Assembly (NCBI GenBank): GCA_000503875.1
Contig: CP006913.1
Span: forward strand, 270,001 to 302,000
Length of the DNA: 32,000 nt
Direction: 5' to 3'
DNA from: Candidatus Saccharimonadota bacterium
Lineage (GTDB): Bacteria > Patescibacteriota > Gracilibacteria > Absconditabacterales > Absconditicoccaceae
Shown: in pieces, positions 1,101 through 24,312 of the stretch
Position numbering within the stretch: position 1 is the stretch's first letter
Layout of the letters: each line of letters starts with the position of its first letter
Notes under the pieces: generated by a model
What the model saw: only the letters and a program-made list of their open reading frames with translations
Told to the model about the DNA's origin: nothing
Databases searched by the model: none
Program-made: the position numbers and the translations under genes

Positions 1101-3140
1101 CTATTTTACATCAGTAGTAATAAATTCTTTCTCTGTTGGAGAAGCCAATACTTTGACCCCTACGTGCTGTTGCCCCGCAAAAATGAGCCCTTCTCCAACT
1201 CCACAAGATACCAACCTTCTTTGCTCTGCCTCAGAGAGTCCAAGCAGATCATTGAGCGCTTTGATAGAAGTGGTAGATTGTTTAAGCAATATTTGAAGAG
1301 ACGAGTTAGAAAGAATAGGTTTTCCATACTTACTTCTTACGAAGTCTTCAATATCTTGAGAGATGGTAGTAATTCCAAGTCCATATTTTCTGGCTCTTTT
1401 GATAAGTCCAAATAAGAATTCTGCAGAAGTTTCATGTTGAAGCATAATCCAGGCTTCATCACAGATAAGTAATCTTTTCTTTTTCTGTGATCTTACTTTG
1501 GTCCAGATAAAGTTCAAAACGTTAAACATCGCAGGTGTTTTTAATACTTCTTCAAGATCTCTAATACTAAAAACGGTCATTGCATTGTTGATATCTACGT
1601 TAGTATAGTTATTGAAAAGTTTTCCAAAGGTTCCAGTAACATATTTACTAAGTTTAAGCGCTATTTTTTCTCCACCATCCATACCATCCAAAACATTCAT
1701 CAAATCTTCCATCAATGGTGGTTGTTTGCCTTCATATGACATAGCTTCCAAAGAAAATCCTTTTAAGCTATAGGTACTTTGAATTGCTTTATCCAGAAGA
1801 GCTTCTTCTTCAGTACTTAAATCTCCAATCAATAATTTCACTAATCCAATAAGTGCCATAATCTGACTTCTCAAAAGATCTCCTTTCCCGTAATCAACAT
1901 CACTAATTTGTGGAGGAATATCAAATGGATTAATAAATTGTTGTGAACTTGTAGCAATATTTACATAGGTACCACCTACTTTTTGAGCAAGCGTTTTGTA
2001 TTCATTTTCAGGATCGATAATGATAATATCAATTCCATTGAGCAAATATCTAAGTACTTCAAGTTTAACAGTAAATGATTTTCCGGCTCCAGATGTCGCT
2101 AGTACACAACTGTTCATATTTGGAAGTTTGGAATTGAATCTATCGAAAATCACTAATCATCCTGTATGTTGATTAACTCCATATAGGATTCCTGTTTCAC
2201 TAATCATATCATTGGAAATAAAGGGAAAACTTCCCGCCAATGACGAAGTAACACTACTTCTCGTAATCCCTAGATCATCGATACACAAAGGAAGTGTACT
2301 GGTAAATCCTTCATCCATTCTTTGAGTAGCATTTTTCATTCTGATTCCATATCAAGAAATTTTTTGTTCAAGTTTCTTACCTTCTTCCTTGAGTTTATCT
2401 TCACTTTCTTCGTAAACATTCATATAATATCCTGTTTCAAAATATCTTTCTTCACGAGTTGTTAACTTTTCTCTAATCATTTCTACATCCTTGTATTGTT
2501 GTTCAACTTCAGTATCCAACGTGATTCCTTTTGACATAGCATCTTTAATTTCTGCTTTAAGTTGAGTTGCTCTAGTTTTGAGCATAGATTGGATTGCGGC
2601 ATCATCTTCTGGATAAATAAACCAGCTCATATCCCATTTTGCATGAAAACTCAAAATATCTCTTGTCCATAGAGCATCTATGTATGAAGGATAACTTTGA
2701 ACATAATAACTTTTTCCCAAAAGCCCAGAAGTATTGAAATGATTTGGCTTATGTTCCCAAAATGAAGGTGCTATGTGTGATTTATAATCATTGATGACAG
2801 AAATATATTGTTTTTCTACTTCAACGATATATTGTCTAAGTTTGCTAGTAAGCTTGCTATCGCTATATTGATCATCAGGTAATTCCAAAAGATATTTGAT
2901 TTGTTCTTTGAGATCTTTGTCTTTGATCATACTATTTTCTGGTATAACAGCTCATGGAGTACCATCTTTCTTTGGGGTTGCAGCACTAGGAAAAAGTGTT
3001 CAGAACAAACTATCAAAAATTCATCAAACACCTCCAGTTTTTTTTGGAGCATCTATTTGAAGAATATAGTTTGGCTTTCCTCAATTGGGAAGCTGTTGGC
3101 TATAATTAGTATCAAAAATAACGTCTTGAATAGTATTCAT
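1101..3140 (-). CDS. VirB4/TraC-like type IV secretion or conjugation AAA ATPase (~679 aa)
   Basis: Track ORFs 1101..2153, 2157..2339 and 2352..2930 share one frame and are joined by TGA at 2157-2159 and 2352-2354. The frame continues upstream through further TGAs to ATG at 3138-3140. Walker A is 'ATSGAGKSF', followed by 'IIIIDPENEY' and the Walker B-like 'RLLICDEAW', a layout typical of VirB4/DUF87 ATPases. Stop is TAG at 1101-1103. Confidence 0.75.
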
Positions 3141-7944: not shown

Positions 7945-9327
<1,383 letters not shown>

Positions 9328-9337
9328 GGGAAGTAAG

Positions 9338-9384
9338 TAATAAATTAAATATTTTTTTATAGTGATCAACTAACAATTTCTGAT
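9338..9384. repeat. 47-bp direct repeat, copy A (non-coding duplicate of the atpG 3' end plus downstream sequence)
   Basis: Identical base for base to 10738-10784: 'taataaattaaatatttttttatagtgatcaactaacaatttctgat'. Flanking bases differ on both sides. The offset is exactly 1400 bp. Confidence 0.9.
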
Positions 9385-9398
9385 TATAATTGTTCTGA

Positions 9399-10727
9399 TT
9401 AATATGTTTGCGCACCTCACCATTCAATTGCTGAGAATCATGTTCTTGTGAATGATTGTAATTTTTGTTCTGGTATAGAAATAGGTTTATCTAGTCATTT
9501 GAATACCATAAATATTCTTTGTATACTATCTGGTTTTGGTATTATTGTTAGTTGAGCTTGGTCTGTATAGTCTTTTCCAGCGAATCTAATTGCAGCATAT
9601 GGATGCTGATTCATAAGTGGTAATCGATATACAATAAATTCATTATATTCATTAGGTGTTAAACCTAAATATGTAAGTTTTTCTTTGAGAAATGATGTAT
9701 AGTTCTTTTTTTCAATAACAAATCATTCATTTATACTCCATGGTTTCATTTTTTTTGCTTCCCAAAATATATATGAATATTTATTATCATCAGCTTTATT
9801 TATTAGTTCTCCATCTGGATTTGCAATTACATTTCGTGTATTGTTTTCTCAAATTTCAGGATATGTTGTGGAAAAAATTCATTTAAGATTTATTTTTACA
9901 CTTACTGCTGTAGGTTTTGTTGGATAGAGATATATTACAGGTTTTTCACCATAACCATCAGCTGTTTCGAATGTCGATAATAATGAACTACTTATAGATT
10001 TGATTTTTCAATCAACAATTTGTTTTGTTATTCAATATGTTTCATTATGTACCATATCTCATAAATATGATGTAATAATTACTCCAAAATAGTATGTGTT
10101 ATTTCATTTGTATGTATATTTATATTTCACTTCTCATCTTTCTGTTCATATCCAATTCCAGTATCCTGAATATGTTTTTGAATATCGGTTTGCATCTCTT
10201 TTTGATCCTGTTGTTAAAGAGAGAGCATAATCATATTTTTTATCATTAACTGCTCAATAATATTCATTTATTAGATCAATATTTTTGATATGATTAATTA
10301 CTTCTTGATCACTTAATTTCATATCTTGTAGAACTTTATTCATAAGCTCTGTATTTCCAAAAACACTATTATCATTATTATAATAATGATTTTTATAATC
10401 CCATACATTATAATAATAAATAGAAATTAATCTGGCTACATTTTTACTAACTCATCAGAAAAAGTTATTATAGTCTATACATCCTGCACCATCACATTCC
10501 AAGTTGGTATCAATTGTTGGTTTTGTATCTGTTTCTGCAGGAACAGACTTACTTTCCATAGTTTCTGTTGTATTTATTCCTTCAAGGGGTATTGAAGTAA
10601 TTGCTGGTATACCTACTAATTCTGGAGAATTATTTATTGCTGTATTATCAATTATTGGTTGTTTTTCTTGTACAGAACATCCAGTTAGAACTAACAATGG
10701 TATTATAGCAAATAAAATCTTTTTCAT
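9399..10727 (-). CDS. lipoprotein of unknown function (442 aa), inserted between atpG and atpD
   Basis: Track ORF 10455..10727 gives the signal peptide plus lipobox ('MKKILFAIIPLLVLTGC'). My hand translation continues in frame through about 15 TGA codons to TAA at 9399-9401. No standard-code ORF of 60 aa or more exists there, as expected for a TGA-rich gene. Confidence 0.65.
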
Positions 10728-10737
10728 TTGAGCAGAT

Positions 10738-10784
10738 TAATAAATTAAATATTTTTTTATAGTGATCAACTAACAATTTCTGAT
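10738..10784. repeat. 47-bp direct repeat, copy B (overlaps the last 9 codons and stop of atpG)
   Basis: Identical to 9338-9384. It covers the atpG 3' end (10757-10784) and the 19 nt downstream. Confidence 0.9.
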
Positions 10785-11659
10785 ATTTCTTGGGTAATTT
10801 TTTGTTGACGAGTTTTATTATACACGGTCTGTAATCCACTTACGATTTCACCACAATTATCTTTGGCATTTTTCATAGCGAGCATTCTTGAAGCTTGTTC
10901 TGATGTCTTATTATTCAATACCGCGTAATAAACGATATGATGCACAATATCTTCAATTAATGATTTTGCATATGTTTTTGGATCTGGTTCTAGTAATAGA
11001 TTGTTATTTGGTACCAAAGCAATATTATCTAACTTTTTATCTATATTTTCCAAGAACGCATCGAAACTTTCTTGATCAAGTGGATAGAGTTTAAATCTCA
11101 AAGGCACCTGCATTACTACATTCTTGAAGTAGTTGAAATAGATTTTGATCTTGGCATAACGATTTTCTTTGATTGCTTGTTTGATATAGACGAAGACGCT
11201 ATTCAAATCATTTTCTACAAAGTTGTCTTTGATATGACAGGTTCCTACGACATTCCATCCTGCTCCCACAAAAAAATCTAATCATTTTTTTCCGATAACA
11301 AAGATATCTACGTTTTCTTTTGCTTCTTTGATAGTTCCATATTTCTCTTGAAGATGCTTAATAAGTTTGCTATTGAGTGATCCACATAATCATTTATCCG
11401 TAGTTACCAAAATAATCAATCTTCTTCCAAAACTATTCTTTGTATCTTTGTTTGTTTGGTTATTTTCATCGAAAATATCTATATGATCTTTGATGGCATA
11501 TAAAACCCCCAAAAACTGCTTCATAAACCCTCTAAAATTGAGTGTTCTCTGTTTTAGTTTTTGTAATTTAACGGTAGAAACTATCTCCAAAGCCTTAATG
11601 ATCTTTTGAAGATTATGTACTGATTTTATTTTGGTCTTGATAAGCTTCGTATTAGCCAT
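10757..11659 (-). CDS. atpG: F1 ATP synthase gamma subunit (300 aa)
   Basis: 'MANTKLIKTKIKSVHNLQKIIKALEIVSTVKL...' continues through TGA at 11390-11392 into track ORF 10766..11269. It ends '...YNKTRQQKITQEISEIVS[TGA]SL' with TAA at 10757-10759. Confidence 0.9.
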
Positions 11660-12107
11660 GTCTCATCTTTTTTAGATGTAAATCAGCGGTAATTTTTTGT
11701 AATGACAAATAGGACTTTTCGATACTATCTATATCTCCTTGGAGTTTAATTTCTTTGATATCTCTTTCTAATTGTTCTTTCATTTTTTCTAGTTCTTGTA
11801 TATCAGATATAGGATTTGCAGTTGCTCCCGAGACAAAAACAATAAGATTCTCACCATCTACATAAAGAGATCAGTTGCCTATTGATAGATGAATTTCATC
11901 CTCTTTAAACAAAAAATCCGTACCTTCTATAAAAGTATTTCCTTGTTTATCTTTTGGTAAGAAACTCAAAATTCCTGGTTTCACGATACTTCCCAAAGGA
12001 ATATGATTTGGTAATACGGTAATTACTCCAGCTTCCGTAGGGATGGTCGTTTTTATTACCTCTCAGTGGAAAATTGTTTCTTGCGGTGAAATTAAAGTTA
12101 GCTGCAT
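11652..12107 (-). CDS. atpC: F1 ATP synthase epsilon subunit (151 aa)
   Basis: Hand translation reads 'MQLTLISPQETIFH[TGA]EVIKTTIPTEAGVITVLPNHIPLGSIVKPGILSF...HLSIGN[TGA]SLYVDGENLIVFVSGA...'. This matches the epsilon beta-sandwich plus helical tail. It is absent from the track because of TGA codons. Its 3' end overlaps the atpG start by 8 nt. Confidence 0.8.
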
Positions 12108-12129
12108 GTAGTATATATAAAACTAAAAT

Positions 12130-13638
12130 CTATTTCACTTCTATTTCTTCCACAACAATTGTAATTAATTCTTTGATTCACAATTCTATTTCGTCATCTA
12201 AAGATTGCTTCTTGATAATATTCTGATTTAATTTTTTGTGGGTTGTATCTAGTTTATTATATAAGTTTTTTTCAAATTCCAATATTTTATCCAACGGCAA
12301 GGTATCCATATATCAGTTGATACCAGCATATACTAATACTACTTGCTTATTGAATGGAATAGGGGAGTTATTGCTTTGTTTAAGCATTTCTACAAGCCTC
12401 TTTCCTTTTTCGATTTTATTTTGAGTTGAAATGTCTAGGTCTGAAGCGAATTGTGCGAAACTAGCCAACTCTCTAAAGGTTGCTAATTCTAGTCTAAGTT
12501 TACCAGCAATTTTTTTCATGATTTTGGTCTGGGCAGATCATCCTACACGAGAAACAGAGAGTCCTACATTGATTGCAGGTCTGATTCATGAGTTGAAAAG
12601 ATCAGTTTCTAAGAATATTTGTCCGTCTGTGATAGAAATTACATTGGTTGGAATATATGCGGAAACGTCAGAATCCAAAGTTTCAATAATAGGGAGAGCG
12701 GTCAAACTTCCTCCACCATGTTCATCGCTAAGTCTTGCAGCTCTTTCCAAAAGTTTGGAATGCAAGTAAAATACATCACCAGGATAGGCTTCTCTTCCAG
12801 GAGGTCTTCTCAAAAGGAGGGAAACTTCTCTATAAGCAACGGCATGTTTCGTCAAATCATCATAGATGATCAACGCATCTTTTCCATGTTCCATAAAATA
12901 TTCTCCTAAAGCACATCCTACGTAGGGAGCAATATATTGCAATACGGATGGTGCATTAGCCGGAGCATTAACAACGATGGTGTAATCCATAGCTCATTTC
13001 TCTTTGAGCATTTCTACGATTCTTCTTACTTTACTATCTTTTTGCCCAATCGCAACATAGATACAGATCACATCTTTTCCTTTTTGGTGGATGATAGTAT
13101 CCGTTGCAATAGTGGTTTTACCTGTTTGTCTATTTCAGATAATCAATTCTCTCTGTCCTCTTCCAATTGGCACCATGGTATCAATTGCTTTAATACCAGT
13201 TTCCAAAGGTGTATTTACTGATTTTCTAGCAATAACTCCAGGAGCAATTTTTTCAACGGGAGAAAATGCTGTTGGCGTGATTTTACCTTCATCATCTATA
13301 GGATTACCCAAGGCATCCAAGACTCTACCCAAATATTCTTCTCCTACTCAGACGTCCAAGACTTTTCCCATAGCTTTTACTACACTTCCTTGTCAGAGAC
13401 CTTCTTGGCTTCCCAATACGAGAATTCCGACAGTATCTGGAGAAAGATCGAGCACAAGCCCCTTAACTCCATTTTCAAATTCTACAATTTCAGAAAACAT
13501 CGCATTGTCCAAACCAATCACGGTTGCGACACCATCTTTCAATTCTAGGATTTCTCCTTTTTTGGAAAACTGTTGTTTGAGGTCTTTACCATCCAAGTCT
13601 TTTTCAATTTTTTTGAGAATATCCGATACGAGATCCAT
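12130..13638 (-). CDS. atpA: F1 ATP synthase alpha subunit (502 aa)
   Basis: Track ORFs 13393..13638, 13135..13332, 12586..12990 and 12313..12519 share one frame and are joined by TGA. It contains 'GRGQRELII[TGA]NRQTGKT' and '[28 protein letters not shown]'. Stop is TAG at 12130-12132. Confidence 0.95.
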
Positions 13639-13674
13639 AGGTAATTAAGATAATGATATAAATTTACTATAATA

Positions 13675-14133
13675 TTATTTCAATAAAATATCTAAATCTG
13701 AATCTAAATTTCTTTTGTATTGATAACCATTTCCTTTGATTGTTATCCCTAAGTGGAAACACTCATCATTTTGCAAACTATATGCTTTAAATTCTTTTTT
13801 GAGCACAGCATCTACTTTACTATGAATATCTTTTTGAGCAGAGAGAGGAGCTTGTACGGTAAATTGTATTTCTTTTTCTTGCTTTTGGAGTTCTTTGATC
13901 AAGATGTTCAAATGTTTTTTACTCCAAAACCCATATTTCCCCAAAAATGCAATAAAATCTCGCAATCCCTGATCATTAGTTTTGATACTATTTTTGTAGT
14001 CCGAAAGAAATATATTTCTATTATATTTTTTTACCAAGATATTCGCTATTTTTACATATTCAACAAAATGAGCGTCCTTTTGAAGACTTGGCAAATATTC
14101 TTGTATAAATGTTTTAAATGAGAGATTTGACAT
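13675..14133 (-). CDS. atpH: ATP synthase delta (OSCP) subunit, short form (152 aa)
   Basis: Intact ORF positioned between atpF and atpA. The C-terminal 'GITIKGNGYQYKRNLDSDLDILL' resembles the delta C-terminal motif. Confidence 0.65.
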   Translation of the reverse strand: MSNLSFKTFIQEYLPSLQKDAHFVEYVKIANILVKKYNRNIFLSDYKNSIKTNDQGLRDFIAFLGKYGFWSKKHLNILIKELQKQEKEIQFTVQAPLSAQKDIHSKVDAVLKKEFKAYSLQNDECFHLGITIKGNGYQYKRNLDSDLDILLK

Positions 14134-14141
14134 GAGGGATA

Positions 14142-14633
14142 TTATTTTTTTAAATCACTAATCAATGTATCCAGGTATTTATCTTGCAACTTTTCATCGC
14201 TTCACAAAATCTTTTTAACAAGCATTTTACTAGTTCTTTTTAAAGAATCAGTCCAATTATTGGTTAGTGATTCTTCAAGCTTTTTAGCTTCTTTCTCTGC
14301 TTGTAAAAGAATAGCTTTTGCTTTTTGTTCTCATTCTTTTAAAATAGTTTTACTATGTTCTTTGGCAAGAGTTTCTCCTTCATAAAGAATAGATTCAGAG
14401 TGTTTTTTTGCATGAGAGATGATATCTTCAGCTTCTATTTTTGCTTTATCCAAAATCTCTAGGTATTCAACATCAGCATTTTTTAATTTTTTTACCAAAT
14501 TTCTTCTTTCTTCGATGGAAGTAGATATAGTATCTCATAAAAATCTTTTAAAGATCCAAAAAAGCAATAGAAAATTGAAAATCTGAGCGATTACGGTAAA
14601 CAAATCTAATCCTATTGATTCTAGAAATGACAT
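14142..14633 (-). CDS. atpF: Fo ATP synthase b subunit (163 aa)
   Basis: Hand translation reads 'MSFLESIGLDLFTVIAQIFNFLLLFWIFKRFL[TGA]DTIS...', followed by a long charged helix. This is an N-terminal TM segment plus coiled-coil stalk. Position in the operon supports the call. Confidence 0.75.
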
Positions 14634-14660
14634 AATTTTTTCATAAAACAAAGATAAAAT

Positions 14661-15104
14661 TTATCAAAGTATCTTAAAAGCAACGATAAGTGCATAAATA
14701 GCTGATGATTCAACTAAGGCAACAAACAATACCATAAATGTCATTATTTTATTCTTTGCTTCAGGATTTCTTTGTAGGGCATCAATAGCGGCAGCAACAA
14801 CCCATCATTCTCATAATGATACAGGAAGTCCAGCAATACCCATTACAAGTCCTGCAGAAAGAGCACTTGCTACACTGATAGCAGATCCTAGATCAATAAT
14901 TTTGAACGCAATAATCAATCCATAGATGGCTGCAGATTCAACTAAGGCAATACCCAAAACAGTAAATACCATAAGTGATCAACTAAGTTCTGGATTTTTT
15001 CCAAGAGCTTCAACTGATTTTTTGGATACAACTGCGTGTCCTAAAGAAACTCAGATAGCACATAGTCATAGTGCAATAGCTGCTCATAATACATGTAGTT
15101 CCAT
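14661..15104 (-). CDS. atpE: Fo ATP synthase c subunit, tandem-duplicated (two hairpins fused, 147 aa)
   Basis: Single frame translated by hand. The first half is '...AIALGLCAIGVSLGHAVVSKKSVEALGKNPE...GIALVESAAIYGLIIAFKII'. The second half is '...SAGLVMGIAGLPVSLGEGWVVAAAIDALQRNPE...FVALVESSAIYALIVAFKIL'. Several glycines of the Gly-rich helix 1 are TGA-encoded. Stop is TAA at 14661-14663. Confidence 0.85.
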
Positions 15105-15131
15105 AATTCTATAATTATTATATAAAAGATA

Positions 15132-15944
15132 TTACTCTTGTACTATCTTAACAAAGATAGCGGTAAGAAGGGATATTACAAATGCTTGAACGACAGCAAC
15201 CAATAGTCATTGAACGAGAAGAATTATTGGCAGAAGGAATGGGAAATCTACTTTTGCTATAAGTTGTGATAATCAATTTGTACCAGCCACTAACATTCAC
15301 AAAAGAATAGTTCATGCTAACATATTTCCCCATAATCTATGTGAGAGAGAAATAAGCTTTGCTAGATTTCCAATAATATCCAATATTCAAATAAACAATG
15401 ATATGATTATGTCGAAAAGTTTTACAACAACCTTCATAGGATAGTAAACAAACGGATTCATAGTTCATTTTTCTACGTCAATAATTTTTTTACCCGTTAT
15501 AGGAATATATTCATGAACAAAATGAATGAATCAATGTTTCTTTGCTTGCATAAAAAGTACAAATACAACAGAGAATATTGCTAATGCAACGTCAAAGTTT
15601 TTATCACTAGTAGGTATTGTTATATAATGTTCTAGTGTAGGTCGAGCTAATGCAAATGAATCAACAAACAATCCCATGAAATTTGAAATGAATACAACAA
15701 AAAACAAACTGACTATGGTTGATTTTACTCGTTTCTTTTCATGTTCTCATAAAATTTCTTCAAAAACTTTATATATTTCTTCATAGAGAAGTTCAAAAAT
15801 AATACTGATTTTACTTTTTTTCTTAAAATGAAATAATGCGATAAAAATACCTATAATAAAAATTTCTGCCAGTACTCAAATGTAGCTTGACCTTATAATA
15901 AAATCAAATCAGAAGATATGTAACGTAGGTAATATATGTTCCAT
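15132..15944 (-). CDS. atpB: Fo ATP synthase a subunit (270 aa)
   Basis: Starts 'MEHILPTLHIF...' and contains 'SLSHRLWGNMLA[TGA]TILL...' with the conserved stator Arg motif. It ends '...LLVAVVQAFVISLLTAIFVKIVQE'. It is the first gene of the operon. Stop is TAA at 15132-15134. Confidence 0.85.
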
Positions 15945-16297: not shown

Positions 16298-17659
16298 ATG
16301 TCTTATGATATTATGAAAACGATTTTTCGATTTAGACAAGACCTGAGAATACAAGATAACCATTGACTAACTGTGGCTTTCAAGAATAGCGACCAGATTT
16401 TACCTATTTTTATTATAGATACAAAATTACTTCAAGAATTTCAATGATTACAAGATCCAAGACTTGGCTTTATCAAAGATGCTCTTCTCAATTTACAACA
16501 ACAATTACAAACAATCAATCTGAATCTTTTAGTTATGGTTGGCAATCCACAAGAGCTTATCCCTTCGCTTGTACGTGAGCATTCCATTGGGCAAGTTTAT
16601 ACAAATAAATCATATGATACCTACGGAATAGGGAGAGATTTAAGAGTGCGTCTGGCGCTCAGAGAAATGGGCGTGCACATGCACGTGGAAAATGATTATT
16701 TGCTGGTAGCGCCAGAAGTCTTGAAACCGTATCAGATCTTTTCTCCCTATTCCAAAGCTTGGGAAAAGGTTGTTATCTCAGACACCTACCAGTTACCTCG
16801 CGACAAAGTCGCCCTCCTTTTCCCAAGTCGCGACATTGCTCAACTCACTCAAAAATCACTTGATCAACTACCATCTTCTCATCCTTATCGAAAATTTCAA
16901 GATCCACTAAAAATACTCAAAAAGTTTGATTTCAAAAATTACGATGAAAAGAGAAATATGCTAGGAGCTGGCGGGACCAGTAAAATTTCTCCATATCTCA
17001 GATTCGGCGTTATCTCCTCCCGCCAGCTCTATCACTTCGCACATCAAGCAAACAATCAAACCTTTATCAAAGAACTGGCGCGAAGAGAATTTCGATATCA
17101 ACTTTCTTATCATTTTCCAGAAGTATTAGTACAATCCTTCCAGGCAAAAAGAAGAGGTATTCCGCGAGACAACGACAACAAACTCTTCGAGGCTTTTTGC
17201 CAAGGGAAAACCTGATATCCAATTATAGATGCCGCGATAACTCAACTCAAAACAGAAAACCGAATGCACGGCCGCGCCAGAATGATAGTCGCATCATTTC
17301 TAACTAAAGATCTCCTTATCGATCGAAAGCGATGAGAAGAATTTTTCAAAAAGCACTTGCTAGATTATGACCAAATAGTTAACATCGGAAACCGACAGCG
17401 ATCAGCTTCAGTTGGCGCAGACCCAAGACCACTGAGAATCTTTAGTCCGATTCTTCAAGCTCAAAGATTTGATCCTGAGGCAAAATATATCAAAAAATAT
17501 CTCCCAGAACTCAAAAATATCCCAGCAGAGCAGTTGCACGATCCACTCACATATTCATTGAAATATATTAAACCAATCATCGATCACAGACTAGCTACCA
17601 AAAGAGCCAAATCTGTTTATGATCAAGCCAAAAGTGAATATTATGAAGAAAATTATTAA
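16298..17659 (+). CDS. phr: deoxyribodipyrimidine photolyase (class I CPD photolyase/cryptochrome family, ~453 aa)
   Basis: Track ORFs 16535..17215 and 17357..17659 are in one frame, and the frame extends upstream to ATG at 16298 (alternative start ATG at 16313). Family motifs include 'F[CGA]FRQDLR', 'ELA[CGA]REF', 'TGYPIIDAA', 'N[CGA][20 protein letters not shown][CGA]K[CGA][TGA]EEFF' and 'GN[CGA]Q[CGA]SAS...[28 protein letters not shown]'. Confidence 0.9.
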
Positions 17660-17723: not shown

Positions 17724-19808
17724 ATGCAAAAAATTTTGCTTCAGAATTCTTATTTCAATATTTTGGAAATGCTTGATCAACAGCCATGATCAGAGCAAAT
17801 GCTCAATGCATTAATCCAATTAGAATCAGATATTAAAGCTGGAATTTTTGATATATTACAAAATTACCAAAAGCAAAACAAAGAAATGGAAAATACAAAA
17901 ACATACCAAGCAATACATGGAACAGTACTTGCATTAAGAAATACGTTGGAAGCTAGAATTATGCAAATAGCAACTGGCGATAAAGTAAGTATTCATGATT
18001 TATTGAATCAATGTATTATCAATCTCAATAAAATATTGGAAAATCAAGAAAATATTGAAGATATATTAAAAAATATGAAAATTTATTTTAGAAAAGTAGA
18101 AGAAACTATTCTTCCGCCAGATGAACAACAAGTTCAGACAGGTTCTTGAAATTGATGATTTGAAAAGAAAGAATGATGTAATAAATTTGGTTCATTAATA
18201 ACATTGCTTAGAAAAAATGAAATATATACAGATGATTTGTTTGTGATTACTTGAGTAAATCAATTAAATCAAATGAGAGAAGAAACATATCTTTATATTC
18301 ACATCCCAAGAATAAATAAAACAATTCTGATTAATAATGGTTATGGAGAAAAAACATTCATTTATGATGGCTATATAGAAGTAGAATATTTTTTGAATAC
18401 TACAAAAAAATGAATCAAACAAAATGAAAATATTGTTAGCGTGAATTTTGACTATGAAGACAGTGCAAATTGGGAAACTAAGATGAGATATTATTTGTTT
18501 GAAAAAGGAAAAGAAAATAAAGATGGATGATCGGTTTGAAAAAAAGTAAATATAAAAGATTTTTTAAGAGTGCCAGAATGATGGTATACGAATAAATCAT
18601 TGGCTACTAATTTGAGCGTTGCACCAAATACAATAAAAAATATAGTTAAACTATATAGAGAAACAAATCCAGAATATTTAAAAAAATATTTAGATAATCA
18701 CAGTAATCTACGAGAATATTATGCGCCAGAATTGTGTAAAATTATAGAAGAAGAAATAAAAAATAGGTGAGAAGAATCTCCAGAATGATGGTTTACAAAT
18801 AATGCTTTAGCTGAAAAATTGGAAAAAAACAAAGATGCTATAAAAAAAATAGCAAAAAAATATATCGTAACAAATCCTGAACGATTCAAGGAATATATAA
18901 ATAAATTATGAAGAATAAGAGAATATTATCATCCAGAATTGTGTAAAATTATAGAAGAAGAAATAGAAAATAGATGAGAAAAAGCTCCAGAGTGATGGAA
19001 AAACAATAATAAATTAGCTAGTGATTTATGAGTAGATTTTGATAGTGTGAAAAAAATAGCTGAAAGTTATAGATGAAATAGTCTAGATTGGTTTGTATAT
19101 TACTTAGATAATATAAACAACTTACGCGAATACTATGCACCAGAGTTATGTAAGATTGTAGAAGAAGAAATAGAAATAAAAAATAGATGAGAAAAAGCTC
19201 CAGAGTGATGGAAAAACAATAATAAATTAAGATTAGAATTGACGGAATCTTTTTATGTAGTAAAAGATATTGCAAATAAATATAGAGAAACAAATCTATT
19301 GTGGTTTAAACAATATCTAGATAATCATAATAATTTACGAGAATATTATCATCCAGAGTTATGTGAGATAATAAGAAAGGAAGCGAAGAATAGAGGAGAA
19401 AAGTCACCAAAGTGATGGGAAACAAATAAATGATTAGCCGACAAAATAGGAACATCAGAACAATCTATAAAATTGGTAATAGAAAAATATAGAGAAAAAA
19501 ACACAGAACGATTTAAAGAATATTTAGATAAAAATAATAGATTACGAGAACATTATCATCCAGAATTATGTAAAATAGTAAAAAAAGAAATAGAAAATAG
19601 ATGAGAAAAATCACCAAAATGACGAAACACAAATAAATGATTAGCAAAAGAAATTGGTGTAGATCCCCTTACTATAAAAGGACGTACCGAGAAATATAGA
19701 GAAACAAATCCAGAACGATTTAAGGACTATTTAGATAAGATGAATAGAAAGACAATTCATTATAGTCCAGAATTCTGTGAAATAATTAAAAAAGAACTCC
19801 AAAAATAA
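17724..19808 (+). CDS. large lineage-specific protein (694 aa): ~280-aa N-terminal region plus six tandem ~70-aa repeats
   Basis: Track ORF 17799..18149 is only a fragment. Hand translation from ATG 17724 runs through more than 30 in-frame TGA codons to TAA at 19806-19808. The repeat consensus is 'PEGW.TN..LA..L......IK.I..KYRETNPEWFK.YLD..NNLREYY.PELC.II..EI.NRGEK'. Confidence 0.7.
18570..19808 (+). repeat. six in-frame tandem coding repeats, period about 210-216 nt
   Basis: Example: 'aatagatgagaaaaagctccagagtgatggaaaaacaataataaatta' recurs near 18969 and 19182. The motif 'ccagaattgtgtaaaattatagaagaagaaata' also recurs. Confidence 0.8.
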
Positions 19809-19892: not shown

Positions 19893-21638
19893 ATGCAATA
19901 CCTCAAAGTAACCAATCTTACCAAATCATATACGGACAAATCACTAGTTGATCATGTTGATTTTACGATTACCAAAAATCAGAAGATTGCTTTGATTGCC
20001 AAAAATGGAGCGGGGAAAACAACCTTGCTCAAATTATTGATGAAGGAAATCGATCTGACGGATGGGGAAATAGATTGGAGAGAAGATATAAAAATCTGAT
20101 ATTTATGACAAGAGTATAAACTCGACAAACACGTAACGGTTCGTGATTTTCTTTTTGATTTTGATACCAATGCGAATCGGGAACAAGAAGTTGAACTCAA
20201 TATTAGTGTGGATAAATTGAGAATCAAATCGTATCTTGGACAAACGATGGATACGTTATCATGAGGGGAAGCAAAGCGTGTGATGTTGGCGAAGGTGTTG
20301 GCGGGAAATCCTTCAATGTTGGTACTAGATGAGCCAACGAATCATCTTGATCTCGATATGATTGAATGGTTAGAACGATATCTCAAGAAACATCATATTA
20401 CCTTGTTTATGGTGACCCATGATAGATATTTTCTGGAAAGAGTATGTACCGATATTTGGGAGTTGGAAAGAGGAAAAATACATCAATATACAGGAAATTA
20501 TTCTTATTTTTTGGAGAAAAAAGCTATTCGCGAAGAAAACGAAAAAATAGAGATGCACAAACTTCACCAGTTGTTCAAAAAAGAGCTTGCCTGGATTCGT
20601 AGAGCTCCGCAGGGGAGACAAACCAAAGCCACCTTTAGAGAAAAAAGATTCTCCGATATCGAAGAAAAATTTGATACCAAGAGAGATGTTCGTTTTTCGG
20701 AAAGCGCAAAATTAGAACTCGGTGTAGAAGAAAGACGCTTATGAGGCAAAATATTGCATATCAAAAATATACAAAAATCTTTCGACACCAAAAAAATAGT
20801 CAATGATTTTTCTCACGAATGTAGACACGGTGAACGTATAGGAATTATCGGAAAAAACGGAGTCGGAAAATCAACATTTATAAATATGATTATGGGCCAA
20901 GAAACCTTGGACAAAGGAACTATTGAAGCAGGGGAGTCTGTGGTTTTTGGATATTACGAACAAAAACAAATCGATTTTCCAACAGACAAAAGACTTATAG
21001 ACATTGTTCCCGATCCAAAACTTCTCGAAAAATTTCTTTTTTTCCCCAAGCAACAACATCAATTTGCTCATAGCTTAAGCGGTGGAGAAAAAAGAAGATT
21101 ATATATGCTAGCTATCCTGCAAAAGAACCCAAACTTTTTAATTATGGATGAGCCAACCAACGATTTGGACTTAATAACTTTGGGAGTGTTAGAAGATTTT
21201 CTTTCCAATTACAAAGGCTGCTTGATCGTGGTTTCTCATGATAGATTTTTTATGGATAAAATTGTGGACCATATCTTCGTCTTCGAAGGCGAGGGCGTAA
21301 TCAATGACTTCCGATGAACCTATTCCCAGTACAAATCCGCCCAAGAAGAAAAGCTCAAAAAAGGCAAAAAAGAAAATAAACCGCTAGCAAAACAAGTTGA
21401 AGCCCCACTTTCCGACAAACCAAAGAAACTTTCGTATATGGAACAACGTGAACTTGATCAGTTGAGTAAAGATATTCAAACATTAGAAAAGAGAAAAGAT
21501 GAAATTCAGATTCTATTTAATGATCCAAATTGCCCTTTTGATGATATTAAGAAACTTGGAATCGAACTCAGTACCTTGATTAAACACCTCGAAATTAAAG
21601 AAGGAAGATGGTTTGAATTAATAGAAAGAGCTTGATAG
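19893..21638 (+). CDS. ABC-F family ATPase (two ABC domains, linker and C-terminal coiled coil; ~581 aa)
   Basis: Track ORFs 19854..20099, 20280..20744, 20754..21317 and 21438..21635 share one frame across TGA codons. Walker A motifs are 'AKNGAGKTT' and 'GKNGVGKST'. Signature motifs are 'LS[TGA]GE' and 'LSGGE'. It also has 'THDRYFL' and 'SHDRFFM'. Stop is TAG at 21636-21638. Confidence 0.85.
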
Positions 21639-23112: not shown

Positions 23113-24312
23113 ATGATATTTGCAATAATTCTGCTTATTTTAGGATTGCTTTTGCTTGGTTTTTGAGCTAATTATCTGATTACTTCTAGTGTGAGAATCG
23201 CAAAACATTTTCATGTTTCTAGTTTGCTTATTGGATTAACTATTATAGCGATAGGAACTTCGGCACCAGAATTATTTCTTTCTGGATTGGCTGCAATTCA
23301 ATGAAATTGAGCACTTTCAGTAGGAAATGTAATAGGATCAAATATATTTAATCTGGGGTTTATTCTTGGTCTTAGTGCTATTATTATGCCAATATTCATC
23401 AAGAAAAAAATTATCTATAGAGATGGTTTGGTTTTACTTATTATTACTGCAGCTGTTCTTGCAATGCTATGGGATCAACACGTTGCTCGGCGAGAAGGAG
23501 CAATTTTACTTGCAGGATTAGTCTGATATAATGGATATCTTCGAATCAAAAAAGATGCACCAACAGATGAAGAAGTTGAAATATCAAAACCAAAACTCAA
23601 AAATTTAGCATATGTTGCACTTGGATTAGTAGCTCTTGCATCTGTTCATGCAACAACTATCGATGGTAATTTTACTGTATCATTTGGTATGTCCTTATAT
23701 TCTGGAATATTTCTGGGGATATTAGGATTATCATTTCTCGTAGCAATTTTCAAAAAAGATATTCCAGAATTTCATGATATTGGAAATGGAACTTTGATGA
23801 ATATTATTAAGTTGATAGCAAGTCTTGGTATATTAGTGTTGGCTTCAGAATTAGTAGTGAGTGCTGCTGTATATATTGCACAGACTTTTTGAATTTCAGA
23901 ACGAGCAATAGGTGCAACGATAGTTGCTGCAGGAACCAGTTTGCCAGAAGTAGCTGCAACAGTAGCAGCTATTCTCAAGAAAAATTATGATATGGGAGTA
24001 GGAAATGTCATAGGGTCAGATATTTTCAATATTTTATGAATTATAGGAATAAGTTCAGTTATAGCACCATTAAATCTTACTTCAAAATGTGTTGTTTTGA
24101 CTCAGTGTGATACATGATTTTGGCAGTTGTTATTTAGAGATAATATATTTTCTGTATTGATTTTATTTTTAACTTTGGGAATAACATTTCTTTTTATGAG
24201 AACAGGTTGGAAATTATCAAAAAGAGAATGAATTATATTATTTGTTTTTGCATTACTCAGAATGATTTTTGAAATTAATCCTAATTTTTTTACTAAATGG
24301 TTTGGTGGCTAA
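23113..24312 (+). CDS. CaCA-family cation/Ca2+ exchanger (YrbG-like, 399 aa)
   Basis: Two alpha-repeats are present: 'LLIGLTIIAIGTSAPEL...GNVIGSNIFN' and 'AIGATIVAAGTSLPEV...GNVIGSDIFN'. It reads through several TGA codons; track ORF 23689..23892 is an internal fragment. Confidence 0.8.

Follow-up and report, generated by a model that had tools for sequence, protein, structure and literature searches.

CGA codons on the tryptophan columns of a photolyase gene, in DNA that very probably carries the SR1 genetic code

Introduction

To our knowledge, reassignments of a sense codon from one amino acid to another are very rare in bacteria, and all reported cases are computational predictions. The closest described case comes from a screen of more than 250,000 genomes with Codetta, which, in its portions cited here, predicts that CGA and CGG have passed from arginine to tryptophan in the Absconditabacteria (candidate division SR1), in addition to UGA being read as glycine (Shulgina & Eddy, eLife 2021; PMC8629427). 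A later article restates the reassignment as accepted (NAR 2026; PMC13092985). Here we analyse a stretch of 32,000 nucleotides (contig CP006913.1, positions 270,001 to 302,000; hereafter the window), centred on phr, a gene for a class I cyclobutane pyrimidine dimer (CPD) photolyase. We conclude, with a probability of roughly 0.93, that Trp is the predominant reading of CGA in this DNA, on top of UGA read as Gly. The window very probably uses the derived SR1 code and is likely to come from a member of the Absconditabacteria.

In the cited portions of the 2021 study, the lineage is proposed to lack tRNA-Arg(ACG/ICG); tRNA-Arg(GCG) reads CGU and CGC, and CGA and CGG are read by tRNA(UCG) and tRNA(CCG) of Trp-type identity, with G73 and without A20 (PMC8629427). 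According to the same text, decoding is only established by experiment, and ambiguity is possible until then (PMC8629427). The literature that we searched held no experimental confirmation of CGA or CGG as Trp later than 2021. It is this screen to which the sequence-only reading of the window had pointed.

Other codes share part of this pattern. NCBI translation table 25 (SR1/Gracilibacteria) changes UGA only: the window agrees with it in that TGA is a sense codon, pairs with GGN and has a gene for release factor 1 (RF1) adjoining; however, CGA and CGG are still Arg in table 25, and phr so translated has R at ten positions. For Anaerococcus and the Onthovivens/RFN20 Bacilli, the cited text of the 2021 screen describes the same low-GC capture of Arg CGN codons, with a tRNA bearing G73 and no A20, but there only CGG has changed and CGA stays Arg through tRNA-Arg(ICG). 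Here it is mainly CGA that would be reassigned, as fits a lineage without tRNA(ACG) in which, as described in that text, tRNA(UCG) reads both CGA and CGG. The UGA-to-Trp change of Mycoplasmatales and insect endosymbionts (table 4) likewise gives an AT-rich, reduced genome a second Trp codon; that case, however, is stop-to-sense, through tRNA-Trp(UCA), whereas the present one would be sense-to-sense, with UGA already taken by Gly.

A 226-residue fragment of phr, translated with table 11, is on record in exactly one assembly, GCA_003543185.1 (contig DPJE01000002.1, 152,556 bp). Figure 4 source data 1 of the 2021 study, sheet 'Absconditabacteria CGR->Trp' (CGR: CGA or CGG), lists this assembly as 'Likely Absconditabacteria', with Codetta calls of UGA=Gly, CGA=Trp and CGG='?' (PMC8629427). 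Its tRNA genes are given there as ACG 0, GCG 1, UCG 1, CCG 1 and CCA 1, and its codons per 10,000 as AGA 289, CGA 25.4, CGG 1.7 and UGG 56.3; it has a GC content of 0.31 and a completeness of 0.50, and it failed GTDB quality control (PMC8629427). NCBI names it 'Candidatus Gracilibacteria bacterium', and it has no GTDB placement. The supplementary files of the NAR 2026 article contain no entry for the assembly or its order. The reassignment of CGA to Trp is already known, having been predicted in 2021 for the very assembly that carries the phr fragment. What we add is support for CGG as Trp where Codetta left a question mark, a set of exceptions at Arg-like columns, and an excess of CGA that is specific to one gene.

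The photolyase gene

The gene phr lies on the forward strand at 16298/16313-17659 and ends with TAA (17657-17659); it encodes 453 amino acids if counted from 16298 and 448 from 16313. The start is probably the second ATG, at 16313, as close homologues all begin at the corresponding 'MKT/MQT', and the five-codon extension from 16298 to 16313 is probably untranslated. With its four in-frame TGA codons, the gene forms one open reading frame only when TGA is a sense codon.

Pfam recognizes both domains of the family, DNA_photolyase (PF00875, 4.6e-33, residues 9-159) and FAD_binding_7 (PF03441, 4.9e-59, residues 256-442). We masked CGA as X before searching the PDB with phmmer, so that its translation would not bias the alignment; the protein aligned over its full length with the Anacystis nidulans photolyase 1owl (E=3.5e-80), and with 1tez and 2e0i. 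A search of species-representative genomes, a collection that does not include GCA_003543185.1 because of its failed GTDB quality control, returned only homologues of 31-48% identity (WOR-3, Thermodesulfobacteria and others). Much closer relatives, five full-length proteins of 75-90% identity, were found by protein search on contigs L014/L015, L016/L017 and L018, which are syntenic with the window, including around phr.

Against the three independent orthologues among these (L014, L016 and L018), the ratio of nonsynonymous to synonymous substitution rates (dN/dS) is about 0.10, at a dS of 0.75-1.4. We regard phr as an ordinary class I CPD photolyase, kept by purifying selection and predicted to be functional in light-dependent repair. 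Its identity to bacterial homologues is 43-48%. Compared with the photolyases of E. coli (1dnp) and A. nidulans (1owl/1tez), it has the same two domains and fills every column of the electron-transfer triad and of the substrate-binding Trp; the spelling of Trp is the sole difference.

CGA codons and tryptophan columns

The reading frame of phr contains ten CGA codons, no CGG and a single TGG. The sequence-only reading had counted nine CGA: all nine are where it placed them, and it overlooked a tenth, at 16889. We derived column statistics from 114 homologues of 43-50% identity, drawn from a search of 5.8 billion proteins.

The first CGA, residue 11 (16328-16330, 'IF[CGA]FRQDLR'), stands in a column that is W in 104 of the 114 homologues and Trp in 1owl; its codon is CGA in L014 and TGG in L016 and L018. 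Residue 262 (17081-17083, 'ELA[CGA]REF'; W in 110/114) faces Trp in 1owl, 2e0i, 4u63 and 2j4d, and residue 266 (17093-17095, 'REF[CGA]YQ'; W in 113/114) gives way to Y, F or C only in more distant PDB chains. Five further codons align with numbered tryptophans of 1owl: residue 290 (17165-17167, 'IP[CGA]DND'; W in 111/114) with W314, residue 322 (17261-17263, 'EN[CGA]MHGRARM'; 101/114) with W346, residue 343 (17324-17326, 'LLID[CGA]K'; 110/114) with W367, residue 366 (17393-17395, 'GN[CGA]Q'; 110/114) with W390 and residue 368 (17399-17401, 'Q[CGA]SAS'; 107/114) with W392. Right next to residue 322, the arginines of 'MHGRARM' are written CGC and AGA, as had been noted from the sequence.

The remaining two positions are mixed. 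At residue 198 (16889-16891, 'HPY[CGA]KF') the column holds 59 F and 51 W; at residue 345 (17330-17332, 'D[CGA]K[CGA]GE') it holds L 53, W 33, I 11, M 5, E 4 and R 3, and is a variable hydrophobic position. In all three orthologues both positions are likewise written CGA. The gene has a single TGG, at residue 155 (16760-16762, 'SKAWEK'), in a column that is W in 113 of 114 sequences, so that TGG does remain a Trp codon here, as claimed earlier; in the distant recoded photolyase L139 the same position is written CGA (R152:CGA).

In total, W makes up 88-99% of the column at eight of the ten CGA; the remaining two have F/W and L/W columns. Seven of the masked residues (X11, X262, X290, X322, X343, X366 and X368) are opposite a Trp of 1owl, which bears out the earlier estimate of at least seven. 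The spacing from X343 to X366, 23 residues, equals that between W367 and W390 of 1owl and agrees with the distance that the sequence-only reading had given between its 'ID-W' and 'G-W-Q-W' motifs. We take W390, W367 and W314 of A. nidulans (E. coli W382, W359 and W306) to be the electron-transfer triad, with W390 proximal to the flavin adenine dinucleotide, W367 in the middle and W314 distal, and W392 together with the Trp of 'ELAW' (E. coli W384 and W277) to be the residues that clamp the dimer and bind the substrate. The triad and the clamping pair of phr are complete only if CGA is Trp.

The converse view leads from the columns to the codons. Among the ten family columns with at least 80% W, phr has CGA in eight, TGG in one and TTT in one. 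Among the 13 columns with at least 80% R, it has AGA in eight, CGC in two and non-Arg codons in the rest: CGA never occurs there, in line with what had been said of its conserved arginines. Pooled over all sites of each kind, CGA columns are 83% W, 5% F, 5% L and 4% R, and AGA/AGG columns are 64% R and 21% K.

The standard reading of CGA as Arg would require a photolyase homologue that has decayed or been neofunctionalized, with Arg in place of its tryptophans. In its favour are only the default expectation of the standard code and the database translations, which show R at these columns. Going from TGG to CGA takes two changes per site, and this would have happened in eight of ten conserved Trp columns; the chance that at least eight of ten random residues fall in columns of at least 80% W is about 5e-14. 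The low dN/dS and the absence of CGA from conserved Arg columns speak equally against decay. At nine of the ten phr sites all three relatives have kept CGA, and none of the ten has become AGA; at a dS of 0.75-1.4, CGA coding for Arg would often have moved to the preferred AGA, so this conservation argues against Arg. Together with the exchanges in other genes described below, we consider CGA as Arg effectively refuted.

If CGA is Trp, the public translations of phr and its kin (tables 11, 4 and 25) put Arg at ten functional Trp positions, and for SR1 genomes the annotations, predicted structures and homology searches would all be systematically wrong at Trp. The gene is a compact and visually convincing exhibit of the predicted reassignment, as all three electron-transfer tryptophans and both clamping ones would be written with an Arg codon. 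The protein records P0001-P0005, P0060, P0070 and P0080 are translated with table 4 (TGA as W) or with CGA as R, so that they show W where Gly belongs and R in place of as many as nine Trp, an annotation error that is systematic for the clade.

Codon exchanges across the window

We aligned the codons of 19 orthologous genes between the window and the three relatives. Opposite CGA of the window, the relatives have CGA 43 times, TGG 7, TTT 2 and GTA 1, and no Arg codon. Opposite TGG they have TGG 38 times, CGA 10 and CGG 1, and opposite the two CGG codons they have TGG 3 times and CGA once. AGA, on the other hand, is matched by AGA 226 times, AAA 23, AGG 21, AAG 8, CGT 2, CGC 1 and CGA 1; CGT and CGC exchange with each other. 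Exchanges of CGA or CGG with TGG total 21; CGA and TGG alone account for 17 of them in both directions, against 1 between CGA and AGA and 2 between CGA and TTT. CGA is two bases away from TGG and only one from AGA, CGT and CGC, and such a pattern is intelligible only with CGA and CGG as synonyms of TGG. Besides phr, 12 genes scattered over the window show these exchanges, and in them CGA is never replaced by AGA, CGT or CGC.

The same counts bear on whether CGA could encode another bulky hydrophobic or aromatic residue, such as Phe, Leu or Tyr. The F/W and L/W columns of phr, the alignment of CGA in other genes with L, M, Y, F and V of distant homologues, and the two exchanges with TTT would all agree with it. 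However, in eight phr columns W reaches 88-99% and F, L and Y are almost absent, and TGG is by far the main non-identical partner of CGA (17 against 2 for TTT), so that this alternative has next to no credibility beside Trp.

CGG is rare, and the sample is small: its only in-frame occurrences in the window are two codons on the forward strand. One, at residue 96 of an ABC-F gene (20178-20180), is TGG in L014 and L018 and CGA in L016. The other, at residue 126 of a Na/Ca-exchanger gene (23488-23490), is followed directly by CGA, and L014 has TGG and then CGA at the same place. The conserved W159 of ABC-F faces a CGG in one relative. In two further recoded photolyases (L139 and L140, about 50% identity) CGA lies on the same W columns as in phr, and L140 adds four CGG on W columns. 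These codons support CGG as a further probable Trp codon, and Arg is predicted to be written only with AGA, AGG, CGU and CGC.

A gene downstream of phr (17724-19808, forward strand) allows a test of what CGA means from within a single protein. It encodes six tandem repeats of about 69 amino acids and contains seven CGA. Column 3 of the repeats has TGG five times and CGA once; column 34 has TAT, two TGG and three CGA. The protein, of 694 amino acids, belongs to no Pfam family, with only a weak match to HTH_3, and its repeat consensus is 'PEGW..NK.LA...YRE.NPEWFK.YLD...L.EYY.PELC..I..EI.NRGEK'. It has no orthologue in the three relatives, where other insertions occupy its place.

UGA is read as Gly throughout. 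When TAA and TAG alone are taken as stops, the window is tiled by 28 long open reading frames, which contain 177 in-frame TGA. Opposite these, the relatives have TGA 68 times, GGA 24, GGT 17 and GGG 6, and the window has GGA opposite 101 TGA of the relatives. The TGA columns of phr are 65% G, plus 18% W that comes from homologues translated with table 4. A release factor with the 'PAT' motif of RF1 is encoded just outside the window.

The GC content is 0.26-0.36 in 2-kb windows, and per 10,000 codons there are 41.5 CGA, 2.1 CGG, 69.5 TGG and 282 AGA; these values fit the published table. The window thus matches the published SR1 code in UGA as Gly, in CGA and CGG on Trp columns, in Arg as AGR/CGY (AGA or AGG, CGU or CGC), in low GC and in CGA being rarer than UGG. 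Its CGA frequency, from one 32-kb sample, is above the ceiling of <37 that the cited text of the 2021 study states for Pfam-aligned regions, and photolyase is not among the genes illustrated in that text.

Within the window, the Trp codons are unevenly spread: CGR:TGG is 10:1 in phr and 32:66 in the other 27 open reading frames (p=2.7e-4). So great a richness of phr in CGA might suggest a local signal, with phr acquired from a donor of another code, or a chimeric or contaminated contig, in a host where CGA is Arg. Against this stand the exchanges with TGG in the 12 other genes, the synteny kept around phr in three relatives, TGA being a sense codon all along the window, and the Codetta call of CGA=Trp for the whole of GCA_003543185.1 (PMC8629427). 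A local origin of the signal is highly improbable.

Exceptions and the question of ambiguity

Several observations weigh against a reading of CGA as Trp, or at least against a clean one. The residue at CGA is deduced from sequence. Column 46 of the repeat protein has three CGA beside AGA, CGC and ACA; CGA162 of ABC-F is opposite the R of 'WLERFL' in EttA; and there are single exchanges between orthologues of CGA with AGA and with AAA. Outside phr, CGA sits mostly at poorly conserved sites, where distant homologues fit Trp without being decisive: their columns read V/S, L/M/Y, Y/L/K, L/L/L/F, Q and Y/H, mostly hydrophobic. Finally, ARAGORN found no tRNA gene in the window, in positions 24980-72882 (48 kb) of contig DPJE01000002.1 or in the loci of the relatives; in metagenomes, a pattern for Trp-like tRNA(UCG) matched at least 120 loci, and among those listed there were only organellar or unrelated tRNAs.

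It is possible that CGA is ambiguous, mostly Trp with a fraction still read as Arg, through near-cognate reading, through a tRNA(UCG) accepted by both synthetases, or through incomplete reassignment. The three CGA beside AGA and CGC in the repeat column would be explained in this way, as would CGA162 of ABC-F, which is CGA in all relatives, and the single exchanges with AGA and AAA; the cited text of the predicting authors grants ambiguity pending experiment (PMC8629427). Yet AGA and CGC each turn into CGA by a single base, so a few changes from Arg to Trp at tolerant sites are expected, and the three CGA of the repeats may go back to a single event that was multiplied when the repeats duplicated. 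CGA is absent from the conserved Arg columns of phr. Ten sites partly occupied by Arg would, moreover, leave the enzyme largely inactive, and phr is under strong purifying selection. We therefore regard a mixed reading as unlikely.

Most simply, CGA in Arg-like columns reflects substitutions of Arg by Trp at tolerant positions. The claim made from the sequence, CGA as Trp on top of UGA as Gly, is sustained by the profile columns, by the codon alignment of orthologues and by the internal repeats; it holds for a predominant reading as Trp, and not for the clean reassignment as which it was presented, given column 46 and ABC-F 162.

Decoding tRNA and proposed route

The metagenome scan used the pattern GGTAGARC-N5-7-CTTCGAA-N12-15-GTTCRA, which combines a Trp-like D arm, a UCG anticodon and a T arm. 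Low-GC candidates with G73 were rejected, as they lay on mitochondrial-type contigs (nad1, nad2, nad4L, nad11) or in unrelated contexts. Five of the contigs (L082, L048, L044, L019 and L027) are of the protist mitochondrial type, with a tRNA(UCG) that has G73 and U20, and with TGA as a sense codon. On mitochondrial-type contigs CGG aligns with Arg ('MASMQ[CGG]RKGPN'), and so G73 and the lack of A20 do not by themselves imply Trp identity. The tRNA genes of L139 are for Pro, Ile, Phe and Ser only, and an Rfam scan of the window gave no match.

The proposed mechanism, an identity switch with charging by tryptophanyl-tRNA synthetase (TrpRS), is taken from the published table and text. According to these, decoding would be performed by tRNA(UCG) and tRNA(CCG) that have lost the Arg element A20, carry G73 and are charged by TrpRS, in a lineage that would be devoid of tRNA-Arg(ACG/ICG), the normal reader of CGA. 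Low GC may first have made CGA and CGG rare, after which the tRNA could have switched identity. TGG could then have drifted to CGA by way of the synonymous intermediate CGG.

Uneven use of CGA among tryptophan codons

The excess of CGR in phr recurs in every relative. CGA and CGG make up 75-91% of photolyase Trp codons, against 34-50% in the neighbouring genes, across the window, L014, L016, L018, L139 and L140; the effect is weaker in two distant recoded lineages (pooled p=0.016). Pairwise identities among the CGA-rich photolyases are all 43-57%, which bears on whether they form a single clade.

Strand also matters: CGR:TGG is 30:23 in genes of the forward strand and 12:44 in those of the reverse strand (p=1.9e-4; p=0.009 without phr). 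The strand effect is confounded with expression level and gene type, since the reverse strand carries the ATP synthase operon and typA; atpA, atpD and typA have no CGA in 1568 codons.

One explanation would be that CGA and CGG are 'safe' Trp codons, selected in a photolyase that depends on its Trp chain. In a cell where UGA is Gly, tRNA-Gly(UCA) might wobble onto UGG, and CGA and CGG would escape this misreading. If true, the need for a safe codon might explain why the capture of Arg codons by Trp arose in a clade with UGA as Gly. We looked for the same preference at critical tryptophans outside phr and found no support: ABC-F 159 and 234, TrmB 33 and EngB 92 are all TGG. With deeply conserved Trp written TGG and CGA placed at variable sites, the other genes do not support the idea, and we consider it improbable. 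A partial reading of CGA as Arg, which would account for its presence in Arg-like columns, is the weaker of these two proposals. With CGA read predominantly as Trp, it may simply be that the triad and the substrate-binding Trp happen to be written almost wholly with CGA.

Other genes of the window

The ATP synthase operon (7945-15944) has the order a-c-b-delta-alpha-(epsilon-like)-gamma-beta. Its c subunit (14661-15104, reverse strand) is of double length, 147 amino acids, by internal duplication: each half aligns with the other, and both align with the c subunits of 149-150 amino acids of the relatives.

A VirB4/TraG-like ATPase (DUF87, AAA_10, P-loop_TraG) is encoded at 1101-3140 on the reverse strand. 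Beyond the start of the window lie a gene with a T4SS_pilin domain and genes for large secreted or membrane proteins. The region, conserved in the relative L016, suggests a putative type IV secretion or competence-like apparatus beside the housekeeping genes.

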